Shown here piece after piece: positions 40,987 through 64,000 of a DNA stretch of 64,000 bases (its first letter is position 1; each line of letters begins with the position of its first letter). Made by a program: the position numbers and the translations under genes. The DNA comes from an uncultured Dehalococcoidaceae bacterium (GTDB lineage: Bacteria > Chloroflexota > Dehalococcoidia > Dehalococcoidales > RBG-16-60-22): the NCBI GenBank assembly GCA_964595455.1, contig CAZQQL010000001.1:15236-79235 (forward strand). Reading direction: 5' to 3'. The notes under the pieces are model-generated. The model ran no database searches. It saw only the letters and a list, made by a program, of their open reading frames with translations, and was not told the origin of the DNA.

Positions 40987-43158
40987 ATGAAATCGAACCG
41001 TAGTACACAGGTCAAGACCTTCTGTTCGATGTGCGGGCCCGCTGCGGGCTGCGGTCTCAATTGCTTTGTTGAGGACGGCAGGCTCGTCAGGGTCGAGGGC
41101 ATGAAAGAAGCACCCATGAACCATGGCAAGCTCTGCGCCAAGGCATTCGCGTCCGCTGAGTGGCTGTATTCTCCGCAGCGCCTGAAATACCCCATGAAAC
41201 GGGTGGGGAAGAAAGGCGAGGGCAAGTTCGAGAGGATCTCCTGGGATGAAGCGGTCGGGACAATCGCGGAAAAACTCCTCCAGCAGAAACGGGAATACGG
41301 CCCGGAATCGCTGGCCATTCTTTCCCCCCAGCACCGTTCCTACAGCGAATATCTCTACCGGTTTCTCATGGTCCACGGCAGCCCCAACTACGGCCACAGC
41401 GGCATTTGCGCCATCCAGCGGGCTTTCGGGTTTGCCTACACGCTCGGTAGCCCCATGACCATGACAGACTTCGAACACACCGACCTCATCGTCATCTGGG
41501 GGGCCAATCCGGCGTTTGCAGGCACCTCGAAAGGAACGATGAAGGGCATCCTTGATGCCCGTGACCGGGGCGCCAGAGTCATGGCTATCAAGCCGGTCCT
41601 CCAGCCGGACGCCGCCCAGGCTGATGAATGGGTGCCGGTGAGGCCGGGCACCGATGCCGCCCTGGCGCTGGCCATGCTGTATGTCATCATCACCGAGGAG
41701 CGCTATGACAAAGAATTTACCGCACGATGGTGCCACGGGTTCCCGGAACTCAAGGCGCACATCCGGCAGTACACCCCCGAATGGGCGGCGCCCATCACCG
41801 GCATACCGGCCGACAGGATACGCGAGATAAGCCGGCTCTACAGCGACGCGAAATCGGCCTGCATCTTGGCTGGGAATGCTTTCGACCAGACCGTCAATGC
41901 CAACAACGCCCTGCGGGCCGTCGCCTCGCTGATCGCCATAACCGGTAACTTCGACCGTCCCGGCGGCAACGTCGTACCGGTGCCCGGCAAGGCGCCCATG
42001 CTGAAACCGGTCCATATCCGGGAGAGATACACACAGGAATGGATCGATAAACTCGTCGGTCCGGAACTGGCTCCAGGGATGCAGCCGTTCATTGAAGGGA
42101 CCTCATCCGCCTATTTCCGCTGCCTGGACAGCGTGCTGACGGAGAAACCGTACCCGCCCAGGACTATCATCGCCCCCGGGACGCAGCCGACCGTCATCAC
42201 CCGTGGGACGCCGCATATCATCAAGGCGCTGGAAAAACTGGATTTCTTCGTCGTCATAGATGTCATGGAAACGGCTTCCATGCCCTGGGCGGACATCGTC
42301 ATCCCCGTGGCAACCATGTATGAGTGCGACCATCCGTTTGAATTCACCGGTTCCTGGCTCATGGCCCGGAACAAGGTGGTAGAACCGCTTGGCGACTACA
42401 AGTCGGACTACCAGTTCTGGCTGGACTTCGGGGTCGCCGCTGGTTACGGGGACGAGTTCTGGCACGGCGATATGACCGCCTGCATGAACTATCAGCTTGA
42501 AAACTTCGAGATGACGATAGACCAGTTGCGACAGCATCCCGACGGGATAACGTTCCAGCCGGGCGAGATGACGTACGAGAAATATGACAAAATATTTACC
42601 ACCCCGAGCCCCCGCCTGTCCCATGAGCCGTATCTGCCGGAAGGAAAAGTAGCCCTCTATAATACGACGTTCGAGAAGAACGGCTTCAATCCGCTGCCGG
42701 AATGGGTTGCCCCGCCGGAAGGCCCGGAACGCAGCCCGGAACTCCTGGAACGGTTTCCGCTCGTCTTTTTCGATACGCACACTTCGGATGCCTACAATCA
42801 TGGGTGGCTGCGGAACGTCCCCAGCCTTCGCGAGTTGGCCCCCGACCCATGGATATACATCCACCCGGATACGGCAAAAGCGAGGGGGATTAAAGATGGG
42901 GACTGGGTTTCTATCGAGTCCCCGCATGGTTGGATAAAGGCGAGGGCGGAACTGTTCCCCGGCATCGCGCCGGATGTCGTCATGGGACTGCATGGCTGGT
43001 GGCAGGGCTGCCAGGAACTGGGATTGCCCGGCTATGACCTGCTCGACGGCGGGGCCAATACGAACCTGCTGTTCACCATCGATCCCGATAAGGCGTTCGA
43101 TCCCGTCATCACCGCCATGACGAAGCAGACGCTTGTCCAGGTCCGTAAATTGACATAA
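40987..43158 (+). CDS. Molybdopterin oxidoreductase catalytic subunit (DMSO reductase superfamily), cytoplasmic
   Basis: N-terminal FeS Cys cluster CSMCGPAAGCGLNC. Molybdopterin and C-terminal dinucleotide-binding regions present. No twin-arginine signal. ATG 40987 follows GAGG. Confidence 0.85.
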   Translation: MKSNRSTQVKTFCSMCGPAAGCGLNCFVEDGRLVRVEGMKEAPMNHGKLCAKAFASAEWLYSPQRLKYPMKRVGKKGEGKFERISWDEAVGTIAEKLLQQKREYGPESLAILSPQHRSYSEYLYRFLMVHGSPNYGHSGICAIQRAFGFAYTLGSPMTMTDFEHTDLIVIWGANPAFAGTSKGTMKGILDARDRGARVMAIKPVLQPDAAQADEWVPVRPGTDAALALAMLYVIITEERYDKEFTARWCHGFPELKAHIRQYTPEWAAPITGIPADRIREISRLYSDAKSACILAGNAFDQTVNANNALRAVASLIAITGNFDRPGGNVVPVPGKAPMLKPVHIRERYTQEWIDKLVGPELAPGMQPFIEGTSSAYFRCLDSVLTEKPYPPRTIIAPGTQPTVITRGTPHIIKALEKLDFFVVIDVMETASMPWADIVIPVATMYECDHPFEFTGSWLMARNKVVEPLGDYKSDYQFWLDFGVAAGYGDEFWHGDMTACMNYQLENFEMTIDQLRQHPDGITFQPGEMTYEKYDKIFTTPSPRLSHEPYLPEGKVALYNTTFEKNGFNPLPEWVAPPEGPERSPELLERFPLVFFDTHTSDAYNHGWLRNVPSLRELAPDPWIYIHPDTAKARGIKDGDWVSIESPHGWIKARAELFPGIAPDVVMGLHGWWQGCQELGLPGYDLLDGGANTNLLFTIDPDKAFDPVITAMTKQTLVQVRKLT

Positions 43159-46551: not shown

Positions 46552-46581
46552 TTGACAGCGATATAACTGCCATGCTAAGAT
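46552..46581 (+). promoter_or_regulatory. Candidate sigma70-type promoter of the BtuFCD-like operon
   Basis: TTGACA (46552-46557), 18-nt spacer, TAAGAT (46576-46581). This implies a leader of about 340 nt. Confidence 0.4.
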
Positions 46582-46614
46582 AATGCAGTTTCTCCGGAGC
46601 TGTCCTCCCTGTAT

Positions 46615-46800
46615 CCCGTTTCAGGGACATGGGAATCAGCCGGTACCCCGATACTATCGGGGTCGACGGTAATGCTGGAAACGGCATTGCCTCCCGGGTG
46701 GAAAAGAGGAACTGATATGGCCCCAACACGTATCATAATGGCATCTGTCCCCCGGATGTCTCCTTCCATTTCTTTCCACCTCGCTATCGGCTCTGTTTTC
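46615..46800 (+). ncRNA. Structured leader; possible cobalamin riboswitch (unconfirmed)
   Basis: The segments GGGAA..., GTCGACGGTAAT and TTGCCTCCCGGGTGGAAAAG loosely resemble the E. coli btuB leader segments GGGAAUCC, GCAGCGGUAAGG and CUGCCAUUCGGUGGGAAG. I could not find a clean B12 box. Position upstream of a corrinoid/siderophore-type ABC transporter. Confidence 0.3.
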
Positions 46801-46925: not shown

Positions 46926-48032
46926 ATGAATAAATGTCTTGCTGCCCTCGTTGTTTTGCTCATTATACTTGCAGCGTTACCTGTCATTTCTACCGGCTGT
47001 GAAAACCAGGTAACCACGTCCTCCGTCGCGGCGACTACCCGCACTATAACTGATATGTTCGGTCGGGAATTGGTCGTGCCATCCGTCATCAACCGCGTCC
47101 TTACCACCGGTCCGATAGAAATGGAACTGGTATACCTTATCGCGCCGGATAAACTGGCCGGGCTGAGCTTCACGTTCAACGGCAAGCCCTCTCTGGTACC
47201 GCAAAAGTACGCCAGCCTGCCCGTGGTCGGCGGCTGGTTCGGTACCCAGACCGGCAACTATGAGACCTTCATCGCCGCCCGGCCCGATATTATTCTCGAG
47301 GGGCAGTTCCAGGAATCCACGATCGCAGAACGGCAGGAGAAGTTCGGCAGTATCCCGGTGGTCGGCGTCTCCGCCGGTGAAGCATCTACCAACTATAAGG
47401 ACGATGCCCTGACCGAATACGAAAAAGAAATCCGTTTCATCGGCGAACTGCTCGGGGAACAGGAACGGGCGGAAGCCCTCATTACCTACTATAAAGAAGC
47501 CATGCAGTACGTGGAGAGCATCGTTTCCGGCATGCCTGAGGCAGACAGGGTAAGGGTCTACTACGCCGAAGGCAAGGAAGGCTTCAGCACCGACCCCATC
47601 GGCTCCATGCATACCCGCTTGCTGGAATTCTGCGGCGGGATCAACGTTGCCGAGGTGGAACTCAAGGGGGGTTACGGCATGGCGGAAACATCCTTCGAGC
47701 AGATTGCCGTATGGGACCCGGACATGATCATCATCGGGCGGGGCAGCCAGACCAGCCTCTATCAGGCCATTATGACCTCCGGTACCTGGGGCGAACTCCG
47801 GGCAGTCAAGGACAAGCAGGTATTTCTCAGGCCGGACAACCCATTTTCCTGGTTCGACGGACCTCCCGGTCCCTGCCAGATAGTCGGCATGTACTGGATG
47901 GTCGACAAGCTCTATCCGGAAAAGACCGTCGGGCTGGACCTGGAAGGTAAGGTCAAGGAATTCTACAGCAAGTTCTTCCATTATGAGTTGACCGATGCGG
48001 AACTGAATAACCTTCTCGGAACGGGGCAGTAG
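46926..48032 (+). CDS. ABC transporter substrate-binding lipoprotein, iron-siderophore/cobalamin (BtuF/FecB) type
   Basis: Lipobox ISTGC and a periplasmic-binding-protein type 2 layout. First gene of the FecCD/ATPase operon. Confidence 0.8.
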   Translation: MNKCLAALVVLLIILAALPVISTGCENQVTTSSVAATTRTITDMFGRELVVPSVINRVLTTGPIEMELVYLIAPDKLAGLSFTFNGKPSLVPQKYASLPVVGGWFGTQTGNYETFIAARPDIILEGQFQESTIAERQEKFGSIPVVGVSAGEASTNYKDDALTEYEKEIRFIGELLGEQERAEALITYYKEAMQYVESIVSGMPEADRVRVYYAEGKEGFSTDPIGSMHTRLLEFCGGINVAEVELKGGYGMAETSFEQIAVWDPDMIIIGRGSQTSLYQAIMTSGTWGELRAVKDKQVFLRPDNPFSWFDGPPGPCQIVGMYWMVDKLYPEKTVGLDLEGKVKEFYSKFFHYELTDAELNNLLGTGQ

Positions 48033-48036
48033 CAGC

Positions 48037-49098
48037 ATGGCTGTGGACTGCACCAGGCCGGTTGAGAACCGGTGGCTCGCCGCGCTCAGGGCGCGCGGCG
48101 GGCTTTCCGCTACACTCTTGTTCGCAATCGTGCTTATGGCCCTTTTTATACTCTCCTTCGCCATCGGCCGCTATCCCGTGTCTCCTATCGATGTTATCAA
48201 GGTGTTTATCTCGCAGCTTCCCGGCATCGATATCGCCCTGCCGGAGATGGCGGCCACCGTGGTGATGGAGATCCGCCTGCCCCGCATCATCGCCGCTGTG
48301 CTCGTGGGCGGCAGTCTGTCCATCGCCGGGGCATCCTTTCAAGGTTTGTTCCGCAATCCCCTCGTCTCCCCGGATATCCTCGGCGTGGCCGCCGGGGCCG
48401 GGTTTGGAGCCGCGCTCGGTATTCTGGTTTCGGGAGACCCTTTCGTGGTCCAGGGACTGGCCTTCGTTTTCAGCCTCGCGGCGGTCGGGATCTCGTACTC
48501 CGTCAGCCGGGTGGTGCGCAGCAATCCCACCCTGAGCCTGATACTGGCTGGAATGGCCATCGGTTCGCTCTTCGGAGCGTTCCTTTCCCTGGTCAAGTAT
48601 GTCGCCGATCCTACGGACCAGCTTCCCACCATCGTCTACTGGCTTATGGGAAGCCTGTCCGCTGTCGGGCATGAAGACCTCCTTATGGTGGCCGGCCCTA
48701 TGATAGTCGGCATCATCGTACTGCTGCTTATACGCTGGCGGCTCAACGTGCTGGCCATGGGTGAAGAAGAAGCCCTCTCTCTGGGCGTGGATACTAGAAA
48801 AGTAAGGATAATCGTCATCATTTGTTGTACCATGATCACCGCCTCGGCGGTTTGCATCAGCGGCATTATCGGCTGGGTCGGCCTGGTGATCCCGCACATG
48901 GGGAGGATGCTGGTGGGGCCGTGCCACAAGAAACTCCTGCCGGTGGCGACGCTGATGGGCGCAGTCTTCCTGCTCCTCATCGATAACCTCACCCGCACGG
49001 CCGCTTCGGTGGAAATCCCGATAGGCATCCTGACGGCAATCATCGGCGTGCCGTTCTTCCTGTATCTCCTCACAAGTCGGAAAAAGGGGTGGTTATGA
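48037..49098 (+). CDS. FecCD/BtuC-family ABC permease
   Basis: RLPRIIAAVLVGGSLSIAGASFQGLFRNPLVSPDILG is a hallmark FecCD block. Confidence 0.85.
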   Translation: MAVDCTRPVENRWLAALRARGGLSATLLFAIVLMALFILSFAIGRYPVSPIDVIKVFISQLPGIDIALPEMAATVVMEIRLPRIIAAVLVGGSLSIAGASFQGLFRNPLVSPDILGVAAGAGFGAALGILVSGDPFVVQGLAFVFSLAAVGISYSVSRVVRSNPTLSLILAGMAIGSLFGAFLSLVKYVADPTDQLPTIVYWLMGSLSAVGHEDLLMVAGPMIVGIIVLLLIRWRLNVLAMGEEEALSLGVDTRKVRIIVIICCTMITASAVCISGIIGWVGLVIPHMGRMLVGPCHKKLLPVATLMGAVFLLLIDNLTRTAASVEIPIGILTAIIGVPFFLYLLTSRKKGWL

Positions 49099-49928
49099 AA
49101 CTGGTGGTACGGAACGCAGCGTTTCACTATACTCCTGGCGGTGAGTCCGGCTTCGACGATATGAGCCTGGATCTTGAAGACGGAGAAATCCTCTGCCTGC
49201 TCGGGCCCAACGGCTGCGGCAAGACCACGTTCCTCAAGTGTCTCTGTAATCTGATGCCCCTGGAAACAGGGGATGTCTTCATCGACGGCCGCAGCATCCA
49301 TTCGATGCGCCGCCGGGAAGTAGCCCGGTACATGGGGTACGTTCCCCAGGTCCATCAGCCCGCCTTCCCCTTTTCGGTGCTGGACGCGGTGCTCGTGGGC
49401 CGGGCATCTCATCTCAACATGCTGGCTTCCCCGGCTGATAAGGACATAGCTATCGCCGTCAGAGCGCTGGAATCGCTGGGAATTGCTCATCTCCGGGAAA
49501 AACCTTACACTGAAATCAGCGGCGGTGAACGGCAACTGGTCATTTTTGCGCGGGTTATCGCCCAGCAGCCTTCTCTACTTTTGCTGGACGAGCCGACCTC
49601 CCACCTGGACTTCGGCAACCAGGTTCGGCTGTTGCAGGTCGTGCAGGACCTGGCGGATACCGGACTGCCAATAATCATGACGTCGCATTTCCCGGACCAT
49701 GTCTTCATGTCCGCCAGTAAGGTAGCGCTGATGAAAAACGGCGGGGTACTTGACTACGGTTGCCCGGATGATGTGGTGACGGAGGACAATCTCGGAGATA
49801 TCTATGGCATCCCGGTAAACATCAGGTATATAGATGGGCCGGTGGGCAGGAAAATATGCATACCGCTGGTTTGCAATGCAAATAACAACAAGGAAGTGAC
49901 ATCATGGAAGACTTCGCTTATTTCCTGA
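49095..49928 (+). CDS. ABC transporter ATP-binding protein (BtuD/FepC-like)
   Basis: Walker A GPNGCGKT, signature ISGGERQ, Walker B LLLDEPTSHLD. ATGA overlap with the permease stop. Confidence 0.85.
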   Translation: MKLVVRNAAFHYTPGGESGFDDMSLDLEDGEILCLLGPNGCGKTTFLKCLCNLMPLETGDVFIDGRSIHSMRRREVARYMGYVPQVHQPAFPFSVLDAVLVGRASHLNMLASPADKDIAIAVRALESLGIAHLREKPYTEISGGERQLVIFARVIAQQPSLLLLDEPTSHLDFGNQVRLLQVVQDLADTGLPIIMTSHFPDHVFMSASKVALMKNGGVLDYGCPDDVVTEDNLGDIYGIPVNIRYIDGPVGRKICIPLVCNANNNKEVTSWKTSLIS

Positions 49929-50467
49929 ATAAGGCATCCGAATTCCACGGCGGAACGTGCGTCGGTCTTGCCCTGGGAACCCGGATCACCGTGGCGGCCC
50001 TGCGGTACCTGGGGTTGGATCCGTACCAGAACAATAAAAAGAAAGTCATTGTCTATGCTGAGATAGACCGCTGCATGACTGACGCGGTCCAGGCCGTGAC
50101 GGGGTGCTCGCTGGGGAAACGGTCTCTGAAGCACGTCAACTACGGGCGCTTTGCGGCGACGTTTGTCAACCTGGAGACGGGGAAAGCGGTCCGCGGTACC
50201 GTGACGAAAGTCTTTTCTTCCCAGTTAGATAAGGAAGACACGCTCAAAGAAATTGCTGCTACGCCGGATGAAGAGCTCGTGACCCTCCAGCCGGTACGTG
50301 TGATCATCCCGGAAAATGATCTGCCGGGGTCTCCCCGTGAAACTGCAGTCTGCTCCTCCTGTGGCGAGCGTATCGCGGACGGCAGGCACATTAAGCAGAA
50401 CGGCGTCACTCTGTGCCAGGCCTGCGCGAACGGCGCTTACTATACCTTATTGGAAAGTGACAGGTAA
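49904..50467 (+). CDS. FmdE-family protein (formylmethanofuran dehydrogenase subunit E-like) with C-terminal zinc ribbon
   Basis: FHGGTCVGLALG N-terminal block and CSSCGE...CQAC zinc ribbon. Overlaps the ATPase gene by 25 nt. Confidence 0.75.
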   Translation: MEDFAYFLNKASEFHGGTCVGLALGTRITVAALRYLGLDPYQNNKKKVIVYAEIDRCMTDAVQAVTGCSLGKRSLKHVNYGRFAATFVNLETGKAVRGTVTKVFSSQLDKEDTLKEIAATPDEELVTLQPVRVIIPENDLPGSPRETAVCSSCGERIADGRHIKQNGVTLCQACANGAYYTLLESDR

Positions 50468-51376: not shown

Positions 51377-52642
51377 TTAGCGGTAAACGCCGTATTCCTT
51401 GACAAAGTCGATCATGGCTTTCAGGTTTTCCGCTTTCACCTCTTCAATCGAACTGCGCGGTGAAAGAACGTAACCGCCGTCTTTTCCCACTACATCGATG
51501 AGCTTCTTGCAGTAGGCGATCACATCTTCCTTGCTGCCGACCTGGAGGATGGAGGAGGGGACATTGCCTTCGATGCAGCAGTGGCCCTTCAGGATTTCCT
51601 TGGCGCGGAAGATGTCGGAGGTATCGAAACGGGCGATGAATTTGCCCTTGGGCAGATCAAGCAGGTACTCGATGCGTGAATCGAAACAGCCCTCGAAGAA
51701 GATGCCGGGCGTCGCGCCTTTGGCGCACAGGCTGTCTACCAGTTTCTTGAAGCTCGGCCAGTAGAACCGGTCGAACTGCTTCTTGGACATGAAATCATCG
51801 GAGCCGCGTGTATTGGTCATGAATATCCGAATATCGCCATTCTCGTCCGGGATGAGCGGCGTCTTCTCCAGCGTCTCTTTCAGGACGAAATCGATGAGTT
51901 CGAGCAGTTTGTCCGGTTGGCGGAACATGTCGTACATGATGCCAGTCATACCGCGAATGGAATGGGAGAGTGAGTCGTAAGGAGGCATCGCGCCCACCAT
52001 CGGGGTGGGATAGTAGCCGTAACTGGCCATCAACTCCATGAACTTGGCCTGTTCTGTGGCGAGCTTCCGCATCTCTTTGCCGGCCTTCTGGAGCACCGAG
52101 ACGGCCTCGGCAACCTCGGGATCGGTGAGGACCATGGCCAATGACTGCGCTGAGCCGGGGCCGTGCAGTATCTGGTACAGCGGCGGGATCTTCTCCAGCC
52201 CGGAGAGGCTCCCGTAAACGCGGGGTATCTGCTTGCGCAGCATGTAGTCGTTCGAGTCCTTCATGTACTCGTCGAACTCGTCCGCCTGGAGCCCGTCTAT
52301 TTCAATTGCCTGGAAACCGTGATTGGGATCGACGCCATGCCCCGGCCACCGCATGGTCCTGGGGTCCAGTATTTCCAGGGCTTTACCGCAGGTCGGCGGG
52401 GAACCGCCAAACGAATCCGGTCTGAAATCCTCCAGGGCTTTCACATGGGCATTGTACCAGGCATCAGGGTCATAGTAGGCGGCGGAGCAGGGGACCCCGC
52501 AGTACTTGGCCGGGAAATTGCCCATCGGGAGCGTTATCGGAACCCTGTCCGGCACCCCGAGGGTCTGGGCAGTGTGGATCCTCTTGTACCGTTCTTCTTT
52601 CAATTGCTGGGCCGGTTTCCCGATGTCAGGGTCTCGGAACAT
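51377..52642 (-). CDS. Uroporphyrinogen decarboxylase (URO-D) family protein, MtaA/CmuA-like methyltransferase type
   Basis: N-terminus VPDRVPITLP and C-terminus GGYVLSPRSSIEEVKAENLKAMIDFVKEYG are typical of the URO-D fold family. Confidence 0.6.
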   Translation of the reverse strand: MFRDPDIGKPAQQLKEERYKRIHTAQTLGVPDRVPITLPMGNFPAKYCGVPCSAAYYDPDAWYNAHVKALEDFRPDSFGGSPPTCGKALEILDPRTMRWPGHGVDPNHGFQAIEIDGLQADEFDEYMKDSNDYMLRKQIPRVYGSLSGLEKIPPLYQILHGPGSAQSLAMVLTDPEVAEAVSVLQKAGKEMRKLATEQAKFMELMASYGYYPTPMVGAMPPYDSLSHSIRGMTGIMYDMFRQPDKLLELIDFVLKETLEKTPLIPDENGDIRIFMTNTRGSDDFMSKKQFDRFYWPSFKKLVDSLCAKGATPGIFFEGCFDSRIEYLLDLPKGKFIARFDTSDIFRAKEILKGHCCIEGNVPSSILQVGSKEDVIAYCKKLIDVVGKDGGYVLSPRSSIEEVKAENLKAMIDFVKEYGVYR

Positions 52643-52820: not shown

Positions 52821-53738
52821 CTACCACTGGACGATGGGCAGCTTGTGGGAAAAACCGGTATCCCTGAATTTTTCTTTCCAGTTGCCCACCGGGCAATAGG
52901 TCAGGCACTTGCCGCACTTGAACGTCGGGGAGTCCTGGAGGCCTTCCGGCATGGTCTTCCGGCAGGCTTCATTGATTTCTTCTATACTGGCATCGAGTGA
53001 TGTTACCAGGTCTTCCCGTCCGCCTGTCTTCTTCATCAGACCGTGAGCCGCAATACGGCACCGGGCCATGTCGACATGGCAGTACTCGTAGACCTTCTCG
53101 CCTTTTTCATGGTTATACGTCACACGGCGGGCTTCTTTCTCTCCGTACTTGCTGAGGGCGCCGGTAGGGCAGACCGTGGTGCAGATGTTGCACTTGGACG
53201 GGTCGCAGAGCCGCGGGCCGTTGTACATGGGGTCGGGTTCCAGTTCGGCGGTGGTGAGGATGGCCCCGAACCGGTTCCTCGGTCCGAATTCCGGCGTCAG
53301 GACGATGCTCATCCACCCGAATTCCCCGAGACCTGCCGCCACCGCGGCATGCCTCTGGCTGATGGCCATACCGGCCTGGAGCGGCCCTACCTGGGTGGGC
53401 ATCGCGGCCTTGCCGGTATTGCGTTCGATGAACTGGGCGATGGCGTAAACCGAATAGAGGAGATGGAAATTGGGAGCGATGGTGTAACCGTACGTGCCGT
53501 AGACTCCCTGCGCCCTTGCATTACCGTCCTCAAAGTTCCTCATAACCGTCTGCACGACGCCGTCAGCCAGACGCACCGCGACCGAGATGACGGACTTGCA
53601 ACCCGGCAGGAAGTCCTTCGGGTTGGATCCTTCGGGCGCACCGTCAAACCGGGAAACAGGCGCGATACCGCACTTGTCCATGCCGGCCATGCGAGCGTAA
53701 TCTTTAATCTGTTGTTCCAAACTCATAGTACCCTCCAT
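52821..53738 (-). CDS. QueG / reductive-dehalogenase-like 2x[4Fe-4S] protein (short form)
   Basis: QueG-like N-terminus (IKDYARMAGMDKCGIAPVSRF). Cluster motifs CDPSKCNICTTVCPTGAL and CGKCLTYCPVG. No Tat signal. Confidence 0.55.
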   Translation of the reverse strand: MEGTMSLEQQIKDYARMAGMDKCGIAPVSRFDGAPEGSNPKDFLPGCKSVISVAVRLADGVVQTVMRNFEDGNARAQGVYGTYGYTIAPNFHLLYSVYAIAQFIERNTGKAAMPTQVGPLQAGMAISQRHAAVAAGLGEFGWMSIVLTPEFGPRNRFGAILTTAELEPDPMYNGPRLCDPSKCNICTTVCPTGALSKYGEKEARRVTYNHEKGEKVYEYCHVDMARCRIAAHGLMKKTGGREDLVTSLDASIEEINEACRKTMPEGLQDSPTFKCGKCLTYCPVGNWKEKFRDTGFSHKLPIVQW

Positions 53739-54573: not shown

Positions 54574-55011
54574 TTACGCCTTCCCCTCATACTTTTTCCC
54601 CGTATTGGTGGCAAAGTGGAACACCGGCCGGTGGATTTCAAGGATGTTGAGCGGATTGTGGAGGATGCCCGCTGGTATATAGGCGAGGAAGGTCTGGTTC
54701 ATCACGTTCCGCTCGCCGTCTATGTACAACTCGATGGTTGCCCCGAGGTCGTTCAGGTCATTGGGGTCCGTCCCGAAGAAACCCAGCACCTCATCGAACT
54801 CATGCGTATGCGGCTCGGGACTGGCTTTGTCCTCTTTGTCCGTCGGCCAGAACCAAACGCACTCCACGTAGAAGGCTCCCGGTATCACCTCGCTGTCCAG
54901 GTACATGACGCGCGTGCTCGTTTCCGCGGATAGATTACCGCCCCATTTGGGTACCGTGATATTCTCCTTGGGTTTGGTAACGATATACTTGCCATGGCTG
55001 ATTTCGTTCAT
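54574..55011 (-). CDS. Hypothetical cupin-like protein (paralog of 18308-18811)
   Basis: EPHTHEFDEVLGFFG...AYIPAGILHNPLNI aligns with the 18308 gene product. Confidence 0.5.
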   Translation of the reverse strand: MNEISHGKYIVTKPKENITVPKWGGNLSAETSTRVMYLDSEVIPGAFYVECVWFWPTDKEDKASPEPHTHEFDEVLGFFGTDPNDLNDLGATIELYIDGERNVMNQTFLAYIPAGILHNPLNILEIHRPVFHFATNTGKKYEGKA

Positions 55012-55167: not shown

Positions 55168-56865
55168 ATGAACAAAGACATTTTCGTCCTCGCCATTCAT
55201 GACGGCCATAACAGCGGCGCGGTATTATTGAAAAATGGCGCCGTCCTTGCTGCCATCAATGAAGAGCGGATCAATAATATTAAAAACTATAGCGGACCGC
55301 CCCTGGAATCCATCCGGCGGGTTTTCAGGATAGCCGGGGTATCGCCGGAAGCTGTGACCATCATCGCGATGGTCGGCCTGCTGCGCACCCATGCGCCCTT
55401 GAAAGAAGAGCCGGTCCATACCCGGCTTTACCAGAAGCTGACTCCCTATGTCCACAGCCACGCCTTCTGTAATCTTCTCGTGAAAACGCTCCATCCCCGC
55501 CGCAAGATGGATGAGCTGAATGCTCTGTTCAGGGAACTGGGCATCGGGGATCGTGAAGTATTCTTCGTGGAACACCACCTTTCCCACGCGGCCTGTGCCT
55601 ACTACAACCGCCCCTGGGACGGGGACACGCTGGTACTCACGCTGGACGGTGCCGGGGACTGCCTGAGTTCGACGGTCTCCATCGGTCAGAACAACACCAT
55701 GAAACGCATCGCTTCCTCGACGCACTTCGATAGCCCCAGCAACAACTTCTACAGTGAGATCACCGGCTTCTTCGGTCTGAAACGATGGGAGCACGAGTAC
55801 AAGGTTATGGGCCTCGCTCCCTACGGCCGGCCGGAATACTGCATCGACCAGATGCGTGACCTCATCCGTGTGAACCCGGATAAACCCCTGGAATTCCAGA
55901 ATACCAGCGGGCGGTACCTCACCGGCCTCCAGCCGCTCCTGCGGAAAAAGCTCGCCGAGCAGCGGTTCGATAACGTCGCCGCTGCCTGCCAGCAGCACTA
56001 TGAAGAAATCGTCGCCCAGTGGGTGAAGAACTGTATCAGGGAGACCGGCATAAAAAAGATTGCCTGTGCCGGCGGGTCGTTCCTCAACGTCAAGGCCAAC
56101 AAGCTGCTGCGGGAAATGGAAGAGGTCGAGGACGCCTTTTTCTACCCGGCCTCGGACGACGGCGGCACGCCGGTCGGGGCCGCTCTCGAAGCCTACAACC
56201 GCTACTGCGAACGCGAGGCCATCGAAGTCATCAAAGCCCCGATGCAGGACATGTACTACGGCGATGAATATGATGATTCTCGAATGGAAAACGCGATCAC
56301 GGAAAAAGGCTGGCGGCAAAAAGCGGTCCGGTATGATAATGTAGAAGGCGAAGTTGCATCACTGCTGGCGGGAGGGAAGATCATCGCCCGTTTCGGCGGC
56401 CGTGACGAATGGGGGCCCCGCGCCCTTGGGAACCGTAGTATCCTGGCTGATCCACGCAGCATGTCCGTTATCCGGAAGATCAATTTCGCCATCAAGCAAA
56501 GGGATTTCTGGATGCCCTTCGCCCCGGCTGTGCTCGAAGAACGGGCCGACGATTACCTGGTTGATGCCCGGGCCGCCCCGTACATGATCGAAGCTTTCGA
56601 TACTAAAGAAGCCGCCATGGACATCATCGCCGGTCTTCATCCGTTCGACCTTACTGCCCGGCCCCAGACTATCAATAGCTGGAACCCGTCCTACCGGCGC
56701 ATCATCGAAGGGTTCCAGGACCTGACCGGGGTTGGCGGTTTGCTGAATACTTCGTTCAATCTCCATGGATTTCCGATCGTCGGTACGCCGGAAGTCGCCC
56801 TGGACACGCTGGCTCAAAGCGGCCTGGATGGATTGTGCCTGGGCAACTGGCTCGTATTGAAGTAG
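55168..56865 (+). CDS. Carbamoyltransferase (NodU/CmcH family)
   Basis: N-terminus LAIHDGHNSGAVLLKNGAVLAAINEERINNIKN and C-terminus NTSFNLHGFPIV. Confidence 0.85.
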   Translation: MNKDIFVLAIHDGHNSGAVLLKNGAVLAAINEERINNIKNYSGPPLESIRRVFRIAGVSPEAVTIIAMVGLLRTHAPLKEEPVHTRLYQKLTPYVHSHAFCNLLVKTLHPRRKMDELNALFRELGIGDREVFFVEHHLSHAACAYYNRPWDGDTLVLTLDGAGDCLSSTVSIGQNNTMKRIASSTHFDSPSNNFYSEITGFFGLKRWEHEYKVMGLAPYGRPEYCIDQMRDLIRVNPDKPLEFQNTSGRYLTGLQPLLRKKLAEQRFDNVAAACQQHYEEIVAQWVKNCIRETGIKKIACAGGSFLNVKANKLLREMEEVEDAFFYPASDDGGTPVGAALEAYNRYCEREAIEVIKAPMQDMYYGDEYDDSRMENAITEKGWRQKAVRYDNVEGEVASLLAGGKIIARFGGRDEWGPRALGNRSILADPRSMSVIRKINFAIKQRDFWMPFAPAVLEERADDYLVDARAAPYMIEAFDTKEAAMDIIAGLHPFDLTARPQTINSWNPSYRRIIEGFQDLTGVGGLLNTSFNLHGFPIVGTPEVALDTLAQSGLDGLCLGNWLVLK

Positions 56866-58170: not shown

Positions 58171-59469
58171 TTGAAAAAAGTACTGATTGTTGGGTTTTTT
58201 CATCCTTATACCCGTCCCGGTGGAAGTTTCCGTGTCCTGCCGCTTATGAAACGTCTGCCGCAATTCGGCTGGGAACCGGTGATTTTAACCCCAGCCTTAT
58301 TGAAAGGGCAAGACCTGCCATACCGGGTTGCGGGAACGGATTACCGCAATATCTTTCGTGTCTGGCAACGATTGTTTGGGTTTCATGAAGGAGATACCTT
58401 CAAACATCAGGTCCAGTCACATATCGGGGCCGCTTCCCGCAGTAATTTAGTGGAATTCCTCTTTAACCGGATTGGAGAAGTGATCACGTACCCGGACCCT
58501 AACCGCGGTTGGAAGGATTTTGCCCTGGAAGCGGGCAGGAAGTTACTGAAAGACGAGAAATTCGATCTGATTTTCAGTTGCCATCCCACCATAAGCCACA
58601 TCGTATCCCATGACCTGAAAGCGGAATTTGGCCTGCCATGGATTGCGGACTTGCCGGATTTGTGGTCAAGGAATCACAATTACAGATACAGTCCGCTCCG
58701 CAGAGGGCTGGATAAGCGTCTCGAAAAGAGAACTCTCGGTACGGCTGACGTGATGACTACCGTTTCTGAACCCTGGGCGCAAACATTGCGCCAGATCCAT
58801 GAAGGTAAAAAGATACTTTCAATCCAGCACGGGTTCCCGCCGGAAGAACTGAACGACCCCCCGGTACCGTTGACAAATGAATTTTCAATTACTTATACCG
58901 GCAGTATCTATCCGGAGGGGCAGGACTTGAAACTGTTCTTCATGGCAATCCAGCAACTGATAGCTGAAGGAAGAATTCCCGCAAACATGGTTGCGATAAG
59001 GTTTTACGGTTCTCCGGTGGCGCAGATTGAGAAAGACTTCCAGAAATATGGACTCACCGCGGTAGCACGGCAATATGGTGCGGTATCGCGGGCCGAAGCA
59101 GTGAGACGGCAGTCCGAAACCCAGGTGCTGTTGTTTGCCAAGTGGAAGACCGGCAATGAAGCGGGATGGTATTCGGGTAAGATATACGAGTACTTGGCGG
59201 CAAGACGCCCGATACTCGCGGTTGACGGTCGCAGGGACGTTGTCACGCAGTTGCTTGATGAAACCTCGGCCGGCGTGGATGCCCTTGATTTGGAATCGGT
59301 GAAACGGAATTTACTCGATATGCATTCCCAATTTGTAAAAAACGGGGAAGTAGCGTATAACGGGAAGATATCTGAGATACAAAAATACTCCCATACGGAA
59401 ATGACGAAGAGTTTTGCCACGCTGTTTGATTCTCTCGTTGACGGTAAATCTGAAAAAAACATGAAGTAA
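58171..59469 (+). CDS. Putative glycosyltransferase (GT-B-like)
   Basis: TTG start. N-terminus KKVLIVGFFHPYTRPGGS and C-terminal Rossmann-like half. Only the genomic context supports the function. Confidence 0.5.
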   Translation: MKKVLIVGFFHPYTRPGGSFRVLPLMKRLPQFGWEPVILTPALLKGQDLPYRVAGTDYRNIFRVWQRLFGFHEGDTFKHQVQSHIGAASRSNLVEFLFNRIGEVITYPDPNRGWKDFALEAGRKLLKDEKFDLIFSCHPTISHIVSHDLKAEFGLPWIADLPDLWSRNHNYRYSPLRRGLDKRLEKRTLGTADVMTTVSEPWAQTLRQIHEGKKILSIQHGFPPEELNDPPVPLTNEFSITYTGSIYPEGQDLKLFFMAIQQLIAEGRIPANMVAIRFYGSPVAQIEKDFQKYGLTAVARQYGAVSRAEAVRRQSETQVLLFAKWKTGNEAGWYSGKIYEYLAARRPILAVDGRRDVVTQLLDETSAGVDALDLESVKRNLLDMHSQFVKNGEVAYNGKISEIQKYSHTEMTKSFATLFDSLVDGKSEKNMK

Positions 59470-59574: not shown

Positions 59575-60549
59575 ATGAAGAAAGCTCTCGTTTGCGGCGC
59601 CGGCGGGTTTATCGGAAGTCATCTGGTGACCAGCCTGAAACAGGAAGGATACTGGGTACGCGGAGTCGACCTCAAACATCCGGAATTCGCGCCTGCCACA
59701 GCGGACGATTTTACTATCGGAGACTTGCGCGACCCCCGTGTATGCACGAAAGTCGCCGATCAGCCCTTTGATGAAGTTTACCAGCTCGCCGCGGACATGG
59801 GCGGCGCCGGTTTCGTCTTCTCCGGTGACAATGATGCGGATATCATGCATAACTCGGCCCTTATCAATCTGAACATGGTGGAAGCCTGTTTTAAGTCCAA
59901 AGTAAAAAAGATATTCTACTCCTCCTCGGCTTGCATGTACCCGGAATACAATCAGATGGACCCGGATAACCCGAAATGTTCTGAAGATTCTGCATATCCC
60001 GCAGCCCCGGACAGTGAGTACGGCTGGGAAAAGCTCTTCAGTGAGCGCCTTTACCTGGCCTTCACTCGGAATTACGGCATTGATATCCGCATTGCGCGGT
60101 TCCATAACATATTCGGCCCGGAAGGCTCCTGGAACGATGGTCGGGAAAAGGCCCCCGCAGCCTTTTGCAGGAAGATCGCACAGGCTCCGGATGGCGGGGA
60201 AATAGAGATGTGGGGAGACGGCCTGCAGACGCGGTCTTTCCTCTATATCGATGAATGCCTTGAAGGAGTCCGCCGGCTGATGAATTCAGACTTCTCCGGC
60301 CCGGTCAATATCGGCTCGGAAGAGATGGTCACTATCAACCAGCTTGCCGCCATGATCATGAGAATAGCCGGTAAGAAACTGTCCATCAGGCATATTACAG
60401 GACCGCTCGGGGTCCGTGGGCGTAATTCAGATAACCGGTTGATCAGAGAAAAACTCGGCTGGAGTCCTTCGGTTCCCCTCGAGAAGGGCCTGGAGAAAAC
60501 CTACAGTTGGATATGCCGGATGGTGGAGAAAAGCGCCGTCAAGAGATGA
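59575..60549 (+). CDS. NAD-dependent nucleotide-sugar epimerase/dehydratase
   Basis: GAGGFIGSHL cofactor motif and YGWEK catalytic Yxxx(K); extended-SDR length. Confidence 0.85.
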   Translation: MKKALVCGAGGFIGSHLVTSLKQEGYWVRGVDLKHPEFAPATADDFTIGDLRDPRVCTKVADQPFDEVYQLAADMGGAGFVFSGDNDADIMHNSALINLNMVEACFKSKVKKIFYSSSACMYPEYNQMDPDNPKCSEDSAYPAAPDSEYGWEKLFSERLYLAFTRNYGIDIRIARFHNIFGPEGSWNDGREKAPAAFCRKIAQAPDGGEIEMWGDGLQTRSFLYIDECLEGVRRLMNSDFSGPVNIGSEEMVTINQLAAMIMRIAGKKLSIRHITGPLGVRGRNSDNRLIREKLGWSPSVPLEKGLEKTYSWICRMVEKSAVKR

Positions 60550-61724
60550 AAATACTCTGCGTCATCTCAACGCTGGACCTGAAATTTCGCCTGGGTTGCA
60601 CCCCGGCCTGGTGGCAGTTACTCAAGGCCTTGCATGAGACCGGGAATGAAGTCATCGCCACGCCGTACCTGGGAGACCCGGTCCAGGGATTGTGGTGGCG
60701 CACCTATCCCAACCCGTGTAGTTGGGAAAGCCGCACCTATAATGCTTACCTTGACCGCCGCAAGAAAGCCGGTGTCTCTCCAAGTAAGAAGAACGTCCTG
60801 ACACCGGTTGCTGGTTCCCTCATCAACAGTTACATCAGACCGAGATGGCAAAAACACCTTGTCGAACTGTTGAACAGGGAGAAAAACATCGACGCCGTTC
60901 TCGTCATGAACGTTCCCATCAATCACCTTAACGGTATCCCGTCTCTGCTGAAAAAGCAGTTCGGCGTCCCGGTCATCTATTACGATGGTGATATGCCCAC
61001 AAGCCTCCCGAAATATACGGTGAGCCGCGGTTTCAAGTTCAATTACTACGAAGGCGCCGACCTCACCGAGTACGATGCTTTTCTGGCCAATTCCGAAGGA
61101 TGTCTGGAAGACCTCGTCCAGATGGGCGCCAAAAACGTACACGCCTTCCAGTACGGTATCGATACCGACCTCGCCTCTCCTATCGAAGTGGAAAAGGATG
61201 TGGATATCGCATTTTTCGGTTATGGAAGTGATTTCCGGGAAGAATGGATGGAAAAGATGATAACCATCCCTTCCCGGGAGATGCCGGATGTCAGGTTTGC
61301 CGTTGCCGGCGGGGGGTTCGCCATGGACCTGGGTAAAGCCGAATTGCTGGGCGACCTATCGTATAGCGAGTGGCGTCATTTCTGTTGCCGCAGCCGGATT
61401 AACCTCAACATAACCCGCTGGTCTCACACCACCATCTATGCATCGTCCACGTCACGGCCGTTCGAACTCGCTGCCTTCGGGGCCTGCATCGTTTCCCAGC
61501 CGTATAACGGCCTCGAAAAATGGTTCGATATCGGCAGAGAGATGATCGTCGTCAACAGCGCCGAAGAAGCCATCGCCGTGTATAAAACTCTGTTGAACTC
61601 GACGGATGAGAGAGAACGTATGGCTGGACTGGCCAGGGAACGTGTCATGAAGGAACACACCTTCCGTCACCGCGCCCGTCAACTCGCAGGGATAATAAAG
61701 GATGTTTCCAGTAAGGCCGGTTAA
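60546..61724 (+). CDS. CgeB-like glycosyltransferase (Glyco_trans_1_2 type C-terminus)
   Basis: ATGA overlap with the epimerase stop. C-terminal block SRPFELAAFGACIVSQ...VVNSAEEA. Confidence 0.65.
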   Translation: MKILCVISTLDLKFRLGCTPAWWQLLKALHETGNEVIATPYLGDPVQGLWWRTYPNPCSWESRTYNAYLDRRKKAGVSPSKKNVLTPVAGSLINSYIRPRWQKHLVELLNREKNIDAVLVMNVPINHLNGIPSLLKKQFGVPVIYYDGDMPTSLPKYTVSRGFKFNYYEGADLTEYDAFLANSEGCLEDLVQMGAKNVHAFQYGIDTDLASPIEVEKDVDIAFFGYGSDFREEWMEKMITIPSREMPDVRFAVAGGGFAMDLGKAELLGDLSYSEWRHFCCRSRINLNITRWSHTTIYASSTSRPFELAAFGACIVSQPYNGLEKWFDIGREMIVVNSAEEAIAVYKTLLNSTDERERMAGLARERVMKEHTFRHRARQLAGIIKDVSSKAG

Positions 61725-64000
61725 TCGCCGTTATACTGGTAGATCTTGACTTCTGCTGTCTGGTTGCCCGCCTGAAGCGCTGCTTGCTGCGGGGATTCGT
61801 GTACCAGGGTAAAGCCTGCAGGAGCTTCCATCGGTACCGGGCTTACCAGCGGATTAGAACCCACAATGGCGAAATTACCCGATTCCTGGCTGTCGATAAA
61901 GTCCACCGCTTCCTCATAAGACTGTGTTTCCTTGATATTCGTCACCTGCCGGTAAGAACGCCCGGTCGGAGCGTCTGTTTTCATGACATATTCGAGCACG
62001 ACGGGTTTTGCACTCGTTACCGCCCCGGCGCTGAGGTTATAAAGTCTCACCAGCAAGGTCCGGTAGTATGCTTGGTCATAGGCGGTAACCGCAACCAGTT
62101 TTCCCTCCTGCGGCATGGCATAGGTCGTGACATAGTTATCCAGGTCAAGACCTGCCCACTCCACAATAGCCCAGAACTTGGTGGTTACCATGGTATTGTC
62201 AATGACCAGGTACTGTGACCTCAGTTCCTCCAGAAGGGGTCCCCACTCGGATTCATCGGTCGAGAGAAGCAGTTGAGCTACTCCTTTGATACGGTTGGGA
62301 TCCTGAGAGGGATTGGCATTGGGGATGCGGTGGGCTGTACGGGAGATCCAGTACCCATAATCCCACCAGCTCGTAACGGCATAGGCAGTCTCGGGGAATT
62401 CGTATGGCTTCTCATACATCCCGTGAATGGCATCAGGCTCGCCCAGTGGTTCCGGGGTATTGTTTCTCAACCAATCCAGGGATTCCTGCCAGGCATCTGA
62501 GGGCGCATAGGCCGCGGCGCTGGCGACATCCACGGATTTTATCAGGCTGGGCAGAAAGATAACCAGCATTGCGACTACCGTTACAACCAGTACTGCCTTT
62601 TGATGTATGCCCCAGCCTGTTTTCTTTCGCCGAACGGGCTGGCTGGCAGCCGATGCGCGGTGTTTCTTCTTGGGATTGACTCTGACTGCGGCAGGTTTGT
62701 TGCTTGTTATCGTAGCTGTCCCCGTTACTACAGCCGCCTCGGCTGGCTGGGCTGCGATTTTCACCATATATCTAGCTCCTGCCCACCAGATTACCTGCCA
62801 GACCAGGTAACCGGACAACAGGGAGATGTTGACTACCAGGTAGTACGCAAATCGTCGCTGGCCCAGGGTCAGGATCAGGATAATGATGGACCATATGAGG
62901 AAGAATACGAGGCCGCTGTCTTTTCCCCGGTTCCTTATGGTAATGACCGCCATTACGACCAGGCTTATGAGACCGAACCCGGGAATAGGCCACCAGGGGA
63001 ACAGGAAGAAGCTGGTGGTGAAATTACCCCAGGCAACCTGGGTAGAAAAAGAACCGGACGGGGACAAAAACGGCTGCATCTCCATCGTCGTTTCAGCAGA
63101 AGACCCGCTGGGGTTGAAGATAGCAAGTTGATCGATGGCAAAATTGTAGGCTGCCGGTGAAATGGCCCGGAAAACGAGTGCTACGATGACGGCCCCAACC
63201 ACCATCGCGAGCGGATAAAACCCGGGATGCCATTTTTGCCGCTTTATCACCCATGAAAGAACGCTGAGCGCCGGGGGTATAAGTGTGGCGACAATTAATG
63301 GAAGTACGTACCTGAAATTGGGTGCCAGCGGAAAATACATCAATAGGGCGATGGGAAAAAATATGAAAAAACCGGTAATACCAAGATATTCCGTCTGCCG
63401 CCTCATGAGGTGGTCAACAACGAACTGTATGACCAAATATACGGTAATGATGAAGACGAACAGCAGTGCGCCCAACCATGAAATCAGATACAGTCCCAGG
63501 AACAGACTGGCCAGCAGGCTATAAATAATGGGCCGGGCGACCACTTGCCAGTCCCGGTCGAGAATGTTCTTGAAGGTAAGGTCACGTTCTCTGGCGCTCT
63601 TGATAGCCAGGATGACAAACAGGCCGGCCAGCGCGGTCAACAATGTCTCCATAACGTGCTGGTCCGTAAAGCCAAGGATCGAACGGCCGAGATATTCCCC
63701 CGGCATGACGGCAAAGAACCCTGCAGCCAGCAGCCCCGCCCAACGGTTAATCAGCGTTTTACCGATGAAATACACCGGAATGACGGTCAGTGCCGCCAGG
63801 ACCGCCGGATAATAGACACTCATCACATCAATCAGGTGCTGGCTTGGAGAACCGAGACCGAATACCCAGATGACAAGTGCTATGAGAAAGTTGAAGAAAT
63901 GGATCGAACCGTAACTCTGACCATTCGGGTATATCAGGAATGGCTGTAATTGCGTCAGGCTTGGGAAATTATGGACCCAGTTATCGATGATGCCGACTTG
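61721..64000 (-). CDS. STT3/AglB-type oligosaccharyltransferase, N-terminus beyond the window edge
   Basis: WWDYGYWI encoded at 62354-62368. Also TDQH (DxH), TTMEMQP (TIxE/SVSE-like) and IDNTMVTTKFWAI (DK-type) motifs, with more than 12 predicted TM helices. The frame stays open from 63826 to 64000. Confidence 0.8.
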   Translation of the reverse strand, partial: QVGIIDNWVHNFPSLTQLQPFLIYPNGQSYGSIHFFNFLIALVIWVFGLGSPSQHLIDVMSVYYPAVLAALTVIPVYFIGKTLINRWAGLLAAGFFAVMPGEYLGRSILGFTDQHVMETLLTALAGLFVILAIKSARERDLTFKNILDRDWQVVARPIIYSLLASLFLGLYLISWLGALLFVFIITVYLVIQFVVDHLMRRQTEYLGITGFFIFFPIALLMYFPLAPNFRYVLPLIVATLIPPALSVLSWVIKRQKWHPGFYPLAMVVGAVIVALVFRAISPAAYNFAIDQLAIFNPSGSSAETTMEMQPFLSPSGSFSTQVAWGNFTTSFFLFPWWPIPGFGLISLVVMAVITIRNRGKDSGLVFFLIWSIIILILTLGQRRFAYYLVVNISLLSGYLVWQVIWWAGARYMVKIAAQPAEAAVVTGTATITSNKPAAVRVNPKKKHRASAASQPVRRKKTGWGIHQKAVLVVTVVAMLVIFLPSLIKSVDVASAAAYAPSDAWQESLDWLRNNTPEPLGEPDAIHGMYEKPYEFPETAYAVTSWWDYGYWISRTAHRIPNANPSQDPNRIKGVAQLLLSTDESEWGPLLEELRSQYLVIDNTMVTTKFWAIVEWAGLDLDNYVTTYAMPQEGKLVAVTAYDQAYYRTLLVRLYNLSAGAVTSAKPVVLEYVMKTDAPTGRSYRQVTNIKETQSYEEAVDFIDSQESGNFAIVGSNPLVSPVPMEAPAGFTLVHESPQQAALQAGNQTAEVKIYQYNGD

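Follow-up and report, generated by a model that had tools for sequence, protein, structure and literature searches.

A predicted archaeal-type AglB oligosaccharyltransferase with intact motifs in an uncultured Dehalococcoidaceae bacterium and its Chloroflexota relatives

N-glycosylation in bacteria is known from the PglB oligosaccharyltransferases of Campylobacterota and some Desulfobacterota. Here we describe an aglB-type gene at one end of a 64,000-nucleotide stretch of DNA from an uncultured Dehalococcoidaceae bacterium of the phylum Chloroflexota (contig CAZQQL010000001.1, positions 15,236 to 79,235; hereafter the window, with positions counted from its first letter). A few bacterial homologues have been placed among the AglBs of Euryarchaeota, so that two or more transfers from archaea to bacteria are implied (Lombard 2016, PMC4973528), and these bacterial sequences support repeated transfer in that direction. 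The alignment of that study contains no Chloroflexi, and its genome set includes both Dehalococcoides mccartyi 195 and Dehalogenimonas lykanthroporepellens, which hints that the cultured dehalogenators lack aglB. In open-access full text and on bioRxiv we found no paper in which AglB, STT3 or an oligosaccharyltransferase is connected with Dehalococcoidia or Chloroflexi, and in a 2025 study of Chloroflexota archaella, O-glycosylation is the only kind treated (PMC12488501). Hundreds of homologues from Chloroflexota metagenome-assembled genomes (MAGs) already bear the name 'oligosaccharyl transferase, archaeosortase A system-associated', given automatically by the NCBI and IMG pipelines. Thus, bacterial AglB homologues and their automatic names were already known, and what is added here is a member from a lineage whose pathway is undescribed. 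We consider it quite probable that this gene encodes an intact archaeal-type AglB in Chloroflexota, that the enzyme serves N-glycosylation, and that it originated by ancient transfer.

The gene was delimited as follows.
61721..64000, minus strand: aglB-type oligosaccharyltransferase gene (open frame; TIGR04154; Pfam STT3 and AglB_core; full-length protein P0001)
Translation of 61600-64000 gave a minus-strand frame of 759 codons, which is uninterrupted from the stop at 61721-61723 to the window edge at nt 64000. The mechanical list of open reading frames (ORFs) shows only the GTG-started portion of this frame, 61721..63826. In a protein search, the full-length protein (P0001, 809 aa, 100% identical) was obtained from NCBI, where it is encoded on an 80,910-bp contig. 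Therefore, the window encodes only residues 51-809, and the 50 residues at the N-terminus are encoded past its edge. An earlier note on this DNA, made from the letters alone, had placed the N-terminus outside the window and proposed recovery of the full gene, and both points are settled by the 759-codon frame and P0001.

The truncated window protein matched TIGR04154 (oligosaccharyl transferase, archaeosortase A system-associated) with E = 2.4e-151 and 505.9 bits, against a curated cut-off of 450, over model positions 42-740 of 831. The Pfam models STT3 (PF02516, 6.8e-18) and AglB_core-like (PF22627, 3.7e-18) were both matched above their gathering scores, and the full-length P0001 behaved likewise. 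When PDB sequences were searched with the single window protein, the top match was AglB-L of Archaeoglobus fulgidus (AfAglB-L; 5gmy/3waj) at 2e-43, and human STT3A was found at 5e-7. Twenty-six family members were aligned (alignment A1), and both the family profile and the calls of invariant columns were derived from this alignment. With the 26-member profile, AfAglB-L was matched at 1e-84 (profile positions 15-661) and STT3B at 1.7e-13. No PglB chain was found among the PDB sequences at E <= 1, either with the single sequence or with the family profile. A1 has 99 invariant columns over the 26 homologues, which are 43-75% identical, and all catalytic residues are included. The window ORF is thus a predicted catalytic single-subunit oligosaccharyltransferase of the AglB type, belonging to the STT3 family with the GT-C fold (CAZy GT66) and to the euryarchaeal TIGR04154 subfamily.

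The motifs of the protein were located by a HMMER alignment to AfAglB-L and a 78-sequence alignment. External loops are abbreviated EL.
63656..63667, minus strand: metal-binding motif of EL2, T-D163-Q-H165, then E168 (HMMER alignment to N-D-H-H of AfAglB-L, 5gmy/3waj)
63080..63091, minus strand: TIXE-type motif of EL5, T354-T355-M-E357 (aligned with TIAE of AfAglB-L; T354, T355 and E357 invariant in A1)
62354..62368, minus strand: WWDYG motif, W595-G599 (invariant in A1), then RIPNANPSQ
62177..62200, minus strand: DK motif of the AfAglB-L type, D651-NTMVTT-K658 (aligned with D-IEMETG-K of AfAglB-L, 3waj/5gmy; D651 and K658 invariant)
In EL2, D163 and E168 are invariant in A1. The catalytic Asp of EL1, D47 (in SSIDAYY of P0001), is invariant in the 26 homologues as well; its codon lies 4 codons past the window edge, and it is seen only in the full-length protein. 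The equivalents of this residue are D47 in AfAglB and yeast Stt3 and D56 in PglB. In the membrane domain, R433-F-A-Y-Y is invariant in A1 and matches RFAYY of AfAglB-L. The stretch that follows WWDYG resembles that of euryarchaea (AfAglB and Haloarcula have ANPFQ) and not the DN.T of the eukaryote/TACK type. By the roles assigned to them, these motifs bind the metal, activate the Asn amide, hold the sequon backbone and, in the case of WWDYG, form the pocket for the +2 Ser/Thr (PMC8342417, PMC7226087); the TIXE motif supplies the catalytic Glu and binds the sequon backbone (PMC8342417). Judged from these alignments, the metal-binding, catalytic and sequon-binding motifs are all intact in the window protein.

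The earlier note had listed the WWDYG, TDQH (DxH) and TTME strings. All three were confirmed by translation, as were DNTMVTTK and the basic loop described below; the second aligned with AfAglB-L, and the third proved to be of the TIXE type. It had also described a DK/DNxT motif, and this claim stood in part: the motif is DK, with invariant D651 and K658, and not MI, but the DNxT likeness in IDNTM is coincidental because N652 and T653 vary in the family.

Several Chloroflexota genomes carry more than one aglB, and the paralogues are both tandem and dispersed. Four copies were found at L028 and two each at L026 and L036, and the copies of L024 and L029 share one 759-kb contig. Several of the Chloroflexota paralogues are degenerate at WWDYG (WSDYG, WWDTG, WWDSG, WPDYG), which suggests sub- or neofunctionalised copies.

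An AlphaFold2 model of the protein was built from A1, with a mean predicted local distance difference test score (pLDDT) of 68 and a predicted TM-score (pTM) of 0.65. The model is confident in the membrane helices and in the C-terminal beta-rich domain. From the model and hydropathy, about 13 membrane helices are predicted, with an extracytoplasmic globular C-terminal domain next. In a Foldseek comparison with the PDB, AfAglB came first (7e9s, 3wak, 5gmy; 2e-22 to 7e-21, TM-score about 0.6), then STT3 chains (4e-14 to 2e-9), and these top matches had a probability of 1.00. DPY19 (1e-7), PglB (6gxc, 5e-7) and ArnT (6e-4) were lower. The comparison with AfAglB and PglB that had been suggested beforehand thus yielded the order AfAglB, STT3, PglB, ArnT, and the model supports a GT-C fold for the window protein with moderate confidence. 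A non-oligosaccharyltransferase GT-C enzyme such as ArnT or PMT, the clustering that the earlier note named as a refutation, was rejected by both sequence and fold, since PMT_2 gave only 18 bits, below its cut-off, and ArnT stood last in the Foldseek order.

The protein search gave 815 proteins at E <= 1e-10 among 8,000 scored candidates, with identities of 40-73% for the best 120. A scan with the peptide patterns WWDYGYW and QRRFAYYL covered one genome per GTDB species. It gave 481 relatives, of which the best 80 were classified; identities are to the window protein.
Dehalococcoidia/Chloroflexota MAGs: 42 of the best 80 loci, 33-51% identity
Other bacteria: 15 of the best 80 loci, 26-33% identity
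Archaea: 23 of the best 80 loci, 21-26% identity (35% over one short segment)
The 15 loci of other bacteria come from Phycisphaerae/Planctomycetota, Vicinamibacteria, Bryobacterales and other Acidobacteriota, and one 'Chlorobiaceae' MAG. An AglB-like enzyme in another bacterial lineage, as earlier proposed, is therefore real, though it belongs to a large annotated clade and is not a one-off.

Phylogenetic trees were made by neighbour joining (NJ) and serve as a rough guide only. Over 737 trimmed columns, the bacteria together with AfAglB-L and Haloarcula AglB were separated from Nitrososphaerota, Bathyarchaeia and DPANN in 100/100 replicates. The Chloroflexota clade was recovered in 85/100 and the all-bacteria clade in 66/100 replicates, and the nearest archaeal sequences were only 26-29% identical over these columns. 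For a second tree, the sequences were mapped onto the 268-site Stt3/AglB/PglB alignment of Lombard 2016 (supplementary file 11). In this tree, the Chloroflexota/Planctomycetota/Acidobacteriota clade was nested within the AglBs of Methanomicrobia, Halobacteria and Archaeoglobi, and the split excluding PglB-like, eukaryotic, TACK, Methanococcales and Thermococcales sequences was found in 145/200 replicates. The closest archaeon was Methanosarcina mazei (YP_007489348.1, 43.5% identity), which was nearest in 137/200 replicates, and the PglB-like sequences and STT3 branched away from the bacterial AglB clade. The bacterial clade is most likely to have arisen by ancient transfer of a Methanosarcinales-like aglB into bacteria. 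The placement among euryarchaeal AglBs in such a phylogeny, which had been called for earlier, agrees with the hidden Markov model matches, the PDB profile search and the Foldseek ranking, and all of them uphold the earlier assignment to the AglB/STT3 type rather than PglB. A eukaryotic or Asgard-TACK STT3 type was rejected: the protein has neither SVSE nor DNNTWNNT, and the NJ split from TACK/DPANN is the 100/100 split above, or the 145/200 split with eukaryotic STT3 included.

The genes next to aglB in the window are concerned with glycan synthesis.
60546..61724, plus strand: glycosyltransferase of the Glyco_trans_1_2 family, 392 aa (Pfam 4.4e-30)
59575..60549, plus strand: NAD-dependent sugar-nucleotide epimerase/dehydratase, 324 aa (Pfam Epimerase 1.4e-44)
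58171..59469, plus strand: GT4-like glycosyltransferase, 432 aa (Pfam Glyco_trans_4_4, Glyco_transf_4; gene order kept on the independent contig L001)
56870..58042, minus strand: GT4/GT1-family glycosyltransferase, 390 aa (Pfam Glycos_transf_1 1.8e-30, Glyco_transf_4 5.8e-22)
55168..56865, plus strand: carbamoyltransferase of the NodU/CmcH type, 565 aa (Pfam Carbam_trans_C 1.5e-53, Carbam_trans_N 1.3e-35)
The first three form a plus-strand unit facing aglB. The Glyco_trans_1_2 gene is convergent with aglB, the two gene ends overlapping by 4 nt, and its ATG start overlaps the stop of the upstream epimerase gene (ATGA). Homologues of the minus-strand glycosyltransferase are found near aglB in L013 and L020. 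The carbamoyltransferase is a candidate for sugar O-carbamoylation within the glycan cluster, to which it is assigned by adjacency only.

The arrangement of aglB, Glyco_trans_1_2 and epimerase is kept in L083, L084 and L085, the closest relatives with DNA (61-73% identity). Among 150 ORFs located no more than 2 kb from aglB in the 42 Chloroflexota loci, the commonest Pfam families were epimerase/dehydratase (7), GT1/GT4 (6) and GT2 (6), and then UDP-sugar dehydrogenase (5), Glyco_trans_1_2 (5) and UDP-GlcNAc 2-epimerase (4). Neither a phosphoglycosyltransferase family nor an exosortase family was among the frequent neighbours in these loci. Some of the relatives' loci also carry a DegT-type aminotransferase, a B12-radical SAM enzyme, a Wzx-like flippase or heptose-nucleotide genes, and some a DPM1-like GT2 with C-terminal membrane helices. 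Thus, aglB is conserved beside glycan-synthesis genes.

Two further proteins of these neighbourhoods were recorded. A conserved 484-aa polytopic membrane protein directly adjoins aglB in five Dehalococcoidia loci.
L003:12833-14284, L005:4570-6012, L006:12459-13910, L045:330-1817 and L051:4713-6155: 484-aa membrane protein
It occurs three times together with the DPM1-like GT2, has an H-I-D-(D/E)-W motif in its first loop, and gave no match in Pfam or PDB sequences. By analogy with AglS/AglD of Haloferax, it may be an unrecognised GT-C enzyme that lengthens the glycan outside the membrane. In the window, a 145-aa protein (54574-55011, minus strand) gave no Pfam or NCBIfam match; its homologues (22-40% identity) are encoded a few kb from aglB in L002, L032 and L034, and it may be part of the surface-glycan neighbourhood.

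These features suggest the following scheme. The neighbouring glycosyltransferases, the epimerase/dehydratase and possibly the carbamoyltransferase would build an oligosaccharide on polyprenyl (pyro)phosphate at the cytoplasmic face of the membrane, and the lipid-linked glycan would then be flipped to the outer face. There, AglB would bind a divalent metal via D47, D163 and H165 and grip the Asn-X-Ser/Thr sequon, with the TTxE357 loop on one side and the WWD/DK pocket on the other. The glycan would be transferred en bloc to the Asn amide of secreted proteins, lipoproteins or S-layer proteins outside the membrane. We infer that N-glycosylation of surface proteins is the likely function of the bacterial AglB. 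Dehalococcoidia are reported to be without peptidoglycan and to have S-layers (PMC4959059, PMC11994032), and S-layer proteins and lipoproteins are the natural acceptor candidates.

Several points weigh against a functional N-glycosylation enzyme acquired from archaea. Activity, glycan, lipid carrier and acceptor protein are unobserved for all members of the bacterial clade. Confidence in the structural model is only moderate, with pLDDT < 50 in both catalytic loops, EL1 and EL5. H165 is aligned with the His of AfAglB-L, yet it is replaced in a minority of homologues (Ala in P0111), and with degenerate WWDYG in some family paralogues, not every member need be an active oligosaccharyltransferase. 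Neither an initiating phosphoglycosyltransferase nor a flippase is encoded within the window. A search for a C-terminal PGF-type pattern in about 1,200 ORFs of the window and of +/-10 kb around the related loci revealed nothing convincing for an archaeosortase/PGF-CTERM system. Finally, the trees are NJ trees, and their key internal nodes have only 66-85% support.

One rival explanation is unlikely but carries some weight, namely that the protein is an AglB-derived GT-C enzyme with a changed job. Such an enzyme might glycosylate Ser/Thr or an acceptor other than protein, such as a cell-surface polymer or lipid, or its main activity might be hydrolysis of lipid-linked oligosaccharide. This explanation would fit a clade in which WWDYG is lost from the earlier-known bacterial homologues (Chloracidobacterium, Geobacter, Stigmatella, Anaeromyxobacter) and degenerate in some Chloroflexota paralogues (WSDYG, WWDTG, WPDYG), and in which no acceptor or PGF-CTERM protein was found in the window and related loci. 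However, D47, TTxE, WWD and DK, through which AfAglB, PglB and STT3 contact the sequon backbone, the acceptor Asn and the +2 Ser/Thr, are kept in the window protein and in most Chloroflexota homologues, and such a conserved sequon-binding pocket is hard to explain with a non-sequon acceptor. A decaying, non-functional relic of an old transfer is very unlikely: degenerate paralogues do occur in some genomes, but the window gene has an intact 809-codon frame, the 99 columns of A1 have stayed invariant among homologues as little as 43% identical, and the synteny with glycan genes is kept.

It is highly improbable that archaeal DNA was misjoined or misbinned into a bacterial contig, as a chimera or contamination. 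This explanation could appeal to TIGR04154 being named for archaea and to the position of aglB at the very end of the window, but the genome context is bacterial and non-chimeric. The bacterial-type genes of the window encode a ModA lipoprotein, a NarQ/UhpB-like histidine kinase, MazF/PemK and an IclR regulator, the first three in keeping with the bacterial neighbours seen by the earlier note; an anaerobic sulfatase maturase and molybdopterin oxidoreductases are also encoded, and two molybdenum cofactor (Moco) riboswitches likewise speak for a bacterial host. The G+C fraction (GC) is 0.52-0.59 throughout the window, and the values of aglB (GC 0.53, third-position GC3 0.62, codon-usage distance 0.20) fall inside the spread of 19 further genes of the window. 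Of the remaining window proteins, nine were searched for, and each is recorded on the contig that carries P0001. An independent Logan contig of 3.2 kb (L001) has the same order for three flanking genes of the glycan cluster, and independent assemblies of relatives repeat the order of aglB, glycosyltransferase and epimerase. The Mo-oxidoreductase at 40972-43158, which is unrelated to aglB, has named relatives in a Chloroflexota bacterium and a Dehalococcoidia bacterium at 67-68% identity, and the named relatives of the window AglB are from a Dehalococcoidales bacterium and a Chloroflexota bacterium. Chloroflexota aglB copies lie on contigs of 0.76, 1.56 and 2.0 Mb, and the genes adjoining aglB in relatives include recO, serS and lysS (L018, L019, L023), gyrB (L082), and htrA and ytxH, which are upstream of aglB in the closest relative (L084). 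Such bacterial neighbours and Mb-scale contigs exclude misbinning for the clade, and the low identity to the nearest archaeal sequences also speaks against it. An archaeal or chimeric contig had been named beforehand as a possible refutation; composition, the shared contig and the relatives' loci all speak for a bacterial one.

A PglB-type enzyme that merely resembles AglB, suggested by the bacterial host and by a single-subunit enzyme with WWDYG, has a negligible chance of being right, as no PglB chain was matched at E <= 1, the motif is DK and not MI, PglB-like sequences form a separate branch, and the Foldseek match to PglB is 15 orders of magnitude weaker than that to AfAglB.

The archaeal-type oligosaccharyltransferase of the window also has a loop that varies in the family.
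62609..62755, minus strand: basic disordered loop between transmembrane (TM) helices TM12 and TM13, residues 466-514, 49 aa (AAQPAEAAVV...RRKKTGWG; charge count, pLDDT)
The loop has 10 Lys and Arg against 1 Asp and Glu, and pLDDT is below 50 at residues 466-513. It is predicted to be cytoplasmic, between the last two membrane helices, because of the positive-inside rule and because the C-terminal domain is outside in solved oligosaccharyltransferase structures. RFAYY and WWDYG are 157 residues apart in the window protein and 112 to 241 apart across the homologues; therefore, the loop is variable and is no special feature of this protein. The unusual basic low-complexity insertion described in the earlier note is instead the ordinary variable TM12-TM13 loop.

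In the sister subclade closest to the window protein, the same AglB loop holds a bona fide DnaJ J domain. In P0088 (residues 538-599), PF00226 is matched at 3.5e-25 and the HPD motif is intact; in P0006 (residues 483-544), the match is 4.1e-23 and HPD is changed to RPD. The J domain of L004 has PPG in place of HPD, and the aglB loci with a J domain are L003, L004 and L051. PF00226 is listed for 15 of the 120 best protein matches. To our knowledge, an oligosaccharyltransferase with a built-in J domain is undescribed.

Other features of the window were noted in passing. The two Moco riboswitches are at 1120-1256 and 46580-46724. The first precedes modA (1399-2205). The genes behind the second are unusual for a riboswitch of this class: instead of modABC, a plus-strand operon (46926-50467) follows that encodes a FecB-like lipoprotein, a FecCD permease, an ATPase and an FmdE-like protein. 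A solute-binding lipoprotein (27775-29427, plus strand) has a Thr/Ser-rich linker directly after the lipobox cysteine (GCGGSGTTTTTTAATTSSTAT), which resembles the O-glycosylated linkers of archaeal and Gram-positive surface proteins. On the minus strand, 21416-27193 encodes two paralogous sulfatases of about 756-760 aa and then an anaerobic sulfatase-maturating radical SAM enzyme (NF010321, 501 bits), which points to organosulfate use. In a stretch of higher GC (0.58), an 876-aa protein (33231-35861, minus strand) with a C-terminal VWA domain as its sole match is encoded close to a Schlafen-group-3/DUF2075-type helicase (37064-39019, plus strand; PF09848 1e-65), and this stretch may be a defence or mobile island. 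An Fe-S protein (52821-53738, minus strand) gave weak sub-threshold matches to QueG and reductive dehalogenase models, and a URO-D/MtaA-like protein (51377-52642) adjoins it.

For the window itself, the result is confirmatory rather than surprising, because its aglB is one of hundreds alike. For the clade, its meaning is wider. A large Chloroflexota clade of AglBs with intact motifs, which also branches into Planctomycetota and Acidobacteriota, would widen the PglB-only picture of bacterial N-glycosylation and is a potential source of oligosaccharyltransferases for glycoengineering. An archaeal-type oligosaccharyltransferase would be the third archaeal envelope trait in Chloroflexota, beside the reported peptidoglycan-less S-layer envelopes of Dehalococcoidia and the archaella that other Chloroflexota have acquired. 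We are evenly divided on a broader proposal, in which the uncultured Dehalococcoidia and the Planctomycetota/Acidobacteriota clades would have complete archaeal-style N-glycosylation, with an AglB from Methanosarcinales-like archaea that decorates S-layers and lipoproteins, and in which the enzyme of one subclade would be coupled through its J domain to cytoplasmic Hsp70. If true, Bacteria would have their first functional system of the AglB type, in peptidoglycan-poor cells.

Among the known systems, Campylobacter PglB (PDB 3RCE, 5OGL, 6GXC) is likewise a single-subunit bacterial N-oligosaccharyltransferase with the GT-C fold, WWDYG and an EL5 TIXE motif. It differs from the window protein in giving no sequence match and only a weak fold match, in having the MI motif (MxxI) where the window protein has DK, and in standing on a separate branch. 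Eukaryotic STT3 (PDB 6S7O, 6S7T, 6EZN, 8AGB) has the catalytic core, WWDYG and DK in common with the window protein and gave the second-rank matches in both sequence and fold. However, it has SVSE and, after WWDYG, DNNTWNNT, whereas the window protein has TTME (TIXE type) and NANPSQ; moreover, it works in a multisubunit complex and branches with Asgard/TACK, not with the bacterial AglB clade.

AfAglB-L (PDB 3WAJ, 3WAK, 5GMY, 7E9S) is the best solved relative of the window protein by sequence and fold. The two have in common an N-terminal multi-TM domain and a C-terminal globular domain, D47, the D-x-H of EL2, the T-I/T-x-E of EL5, RFAYY, WWDYG, ANP(F/S)Q and the DK spacing (D, six residues, K). 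In contrast, their identity is only about 29% over the 737 trimmed columns and 33% on the 268 sites, the TM12-TM13 loop of the window protein is about 40 residues longer and basic, and its host is a bacterium, which probably uses a bacterial polyprenol as the carrier and not dolichol. With M. mazei AglB, the window protein shares GFTD(H/Q)HVAE and R(M/I)PNANP. The archaea on which the TIGR04154 'archaeo_STT3' subfamily was defined have archaeosortase A and PGF-CTERM substrates, neither of which was seen in the window or related loci. The bacteria of Lombard 2016 (Chloracidobacterium thermophilum, Geobacter daltonii, Stigmatella aurantiaca, Anaeromyxobacter dehalogenans) also fall among euryarchaeal AglBs and keep D-H-H-V-x-E in EL2, but in place of WWDYG they have DWTPG, DWGLG, YFNLG or RWDWG. 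Unlike these bacteria, the window protein and most of its Chloroflexota, Planctomycetota and Acidobacteriota homologues have kept WWDYG.

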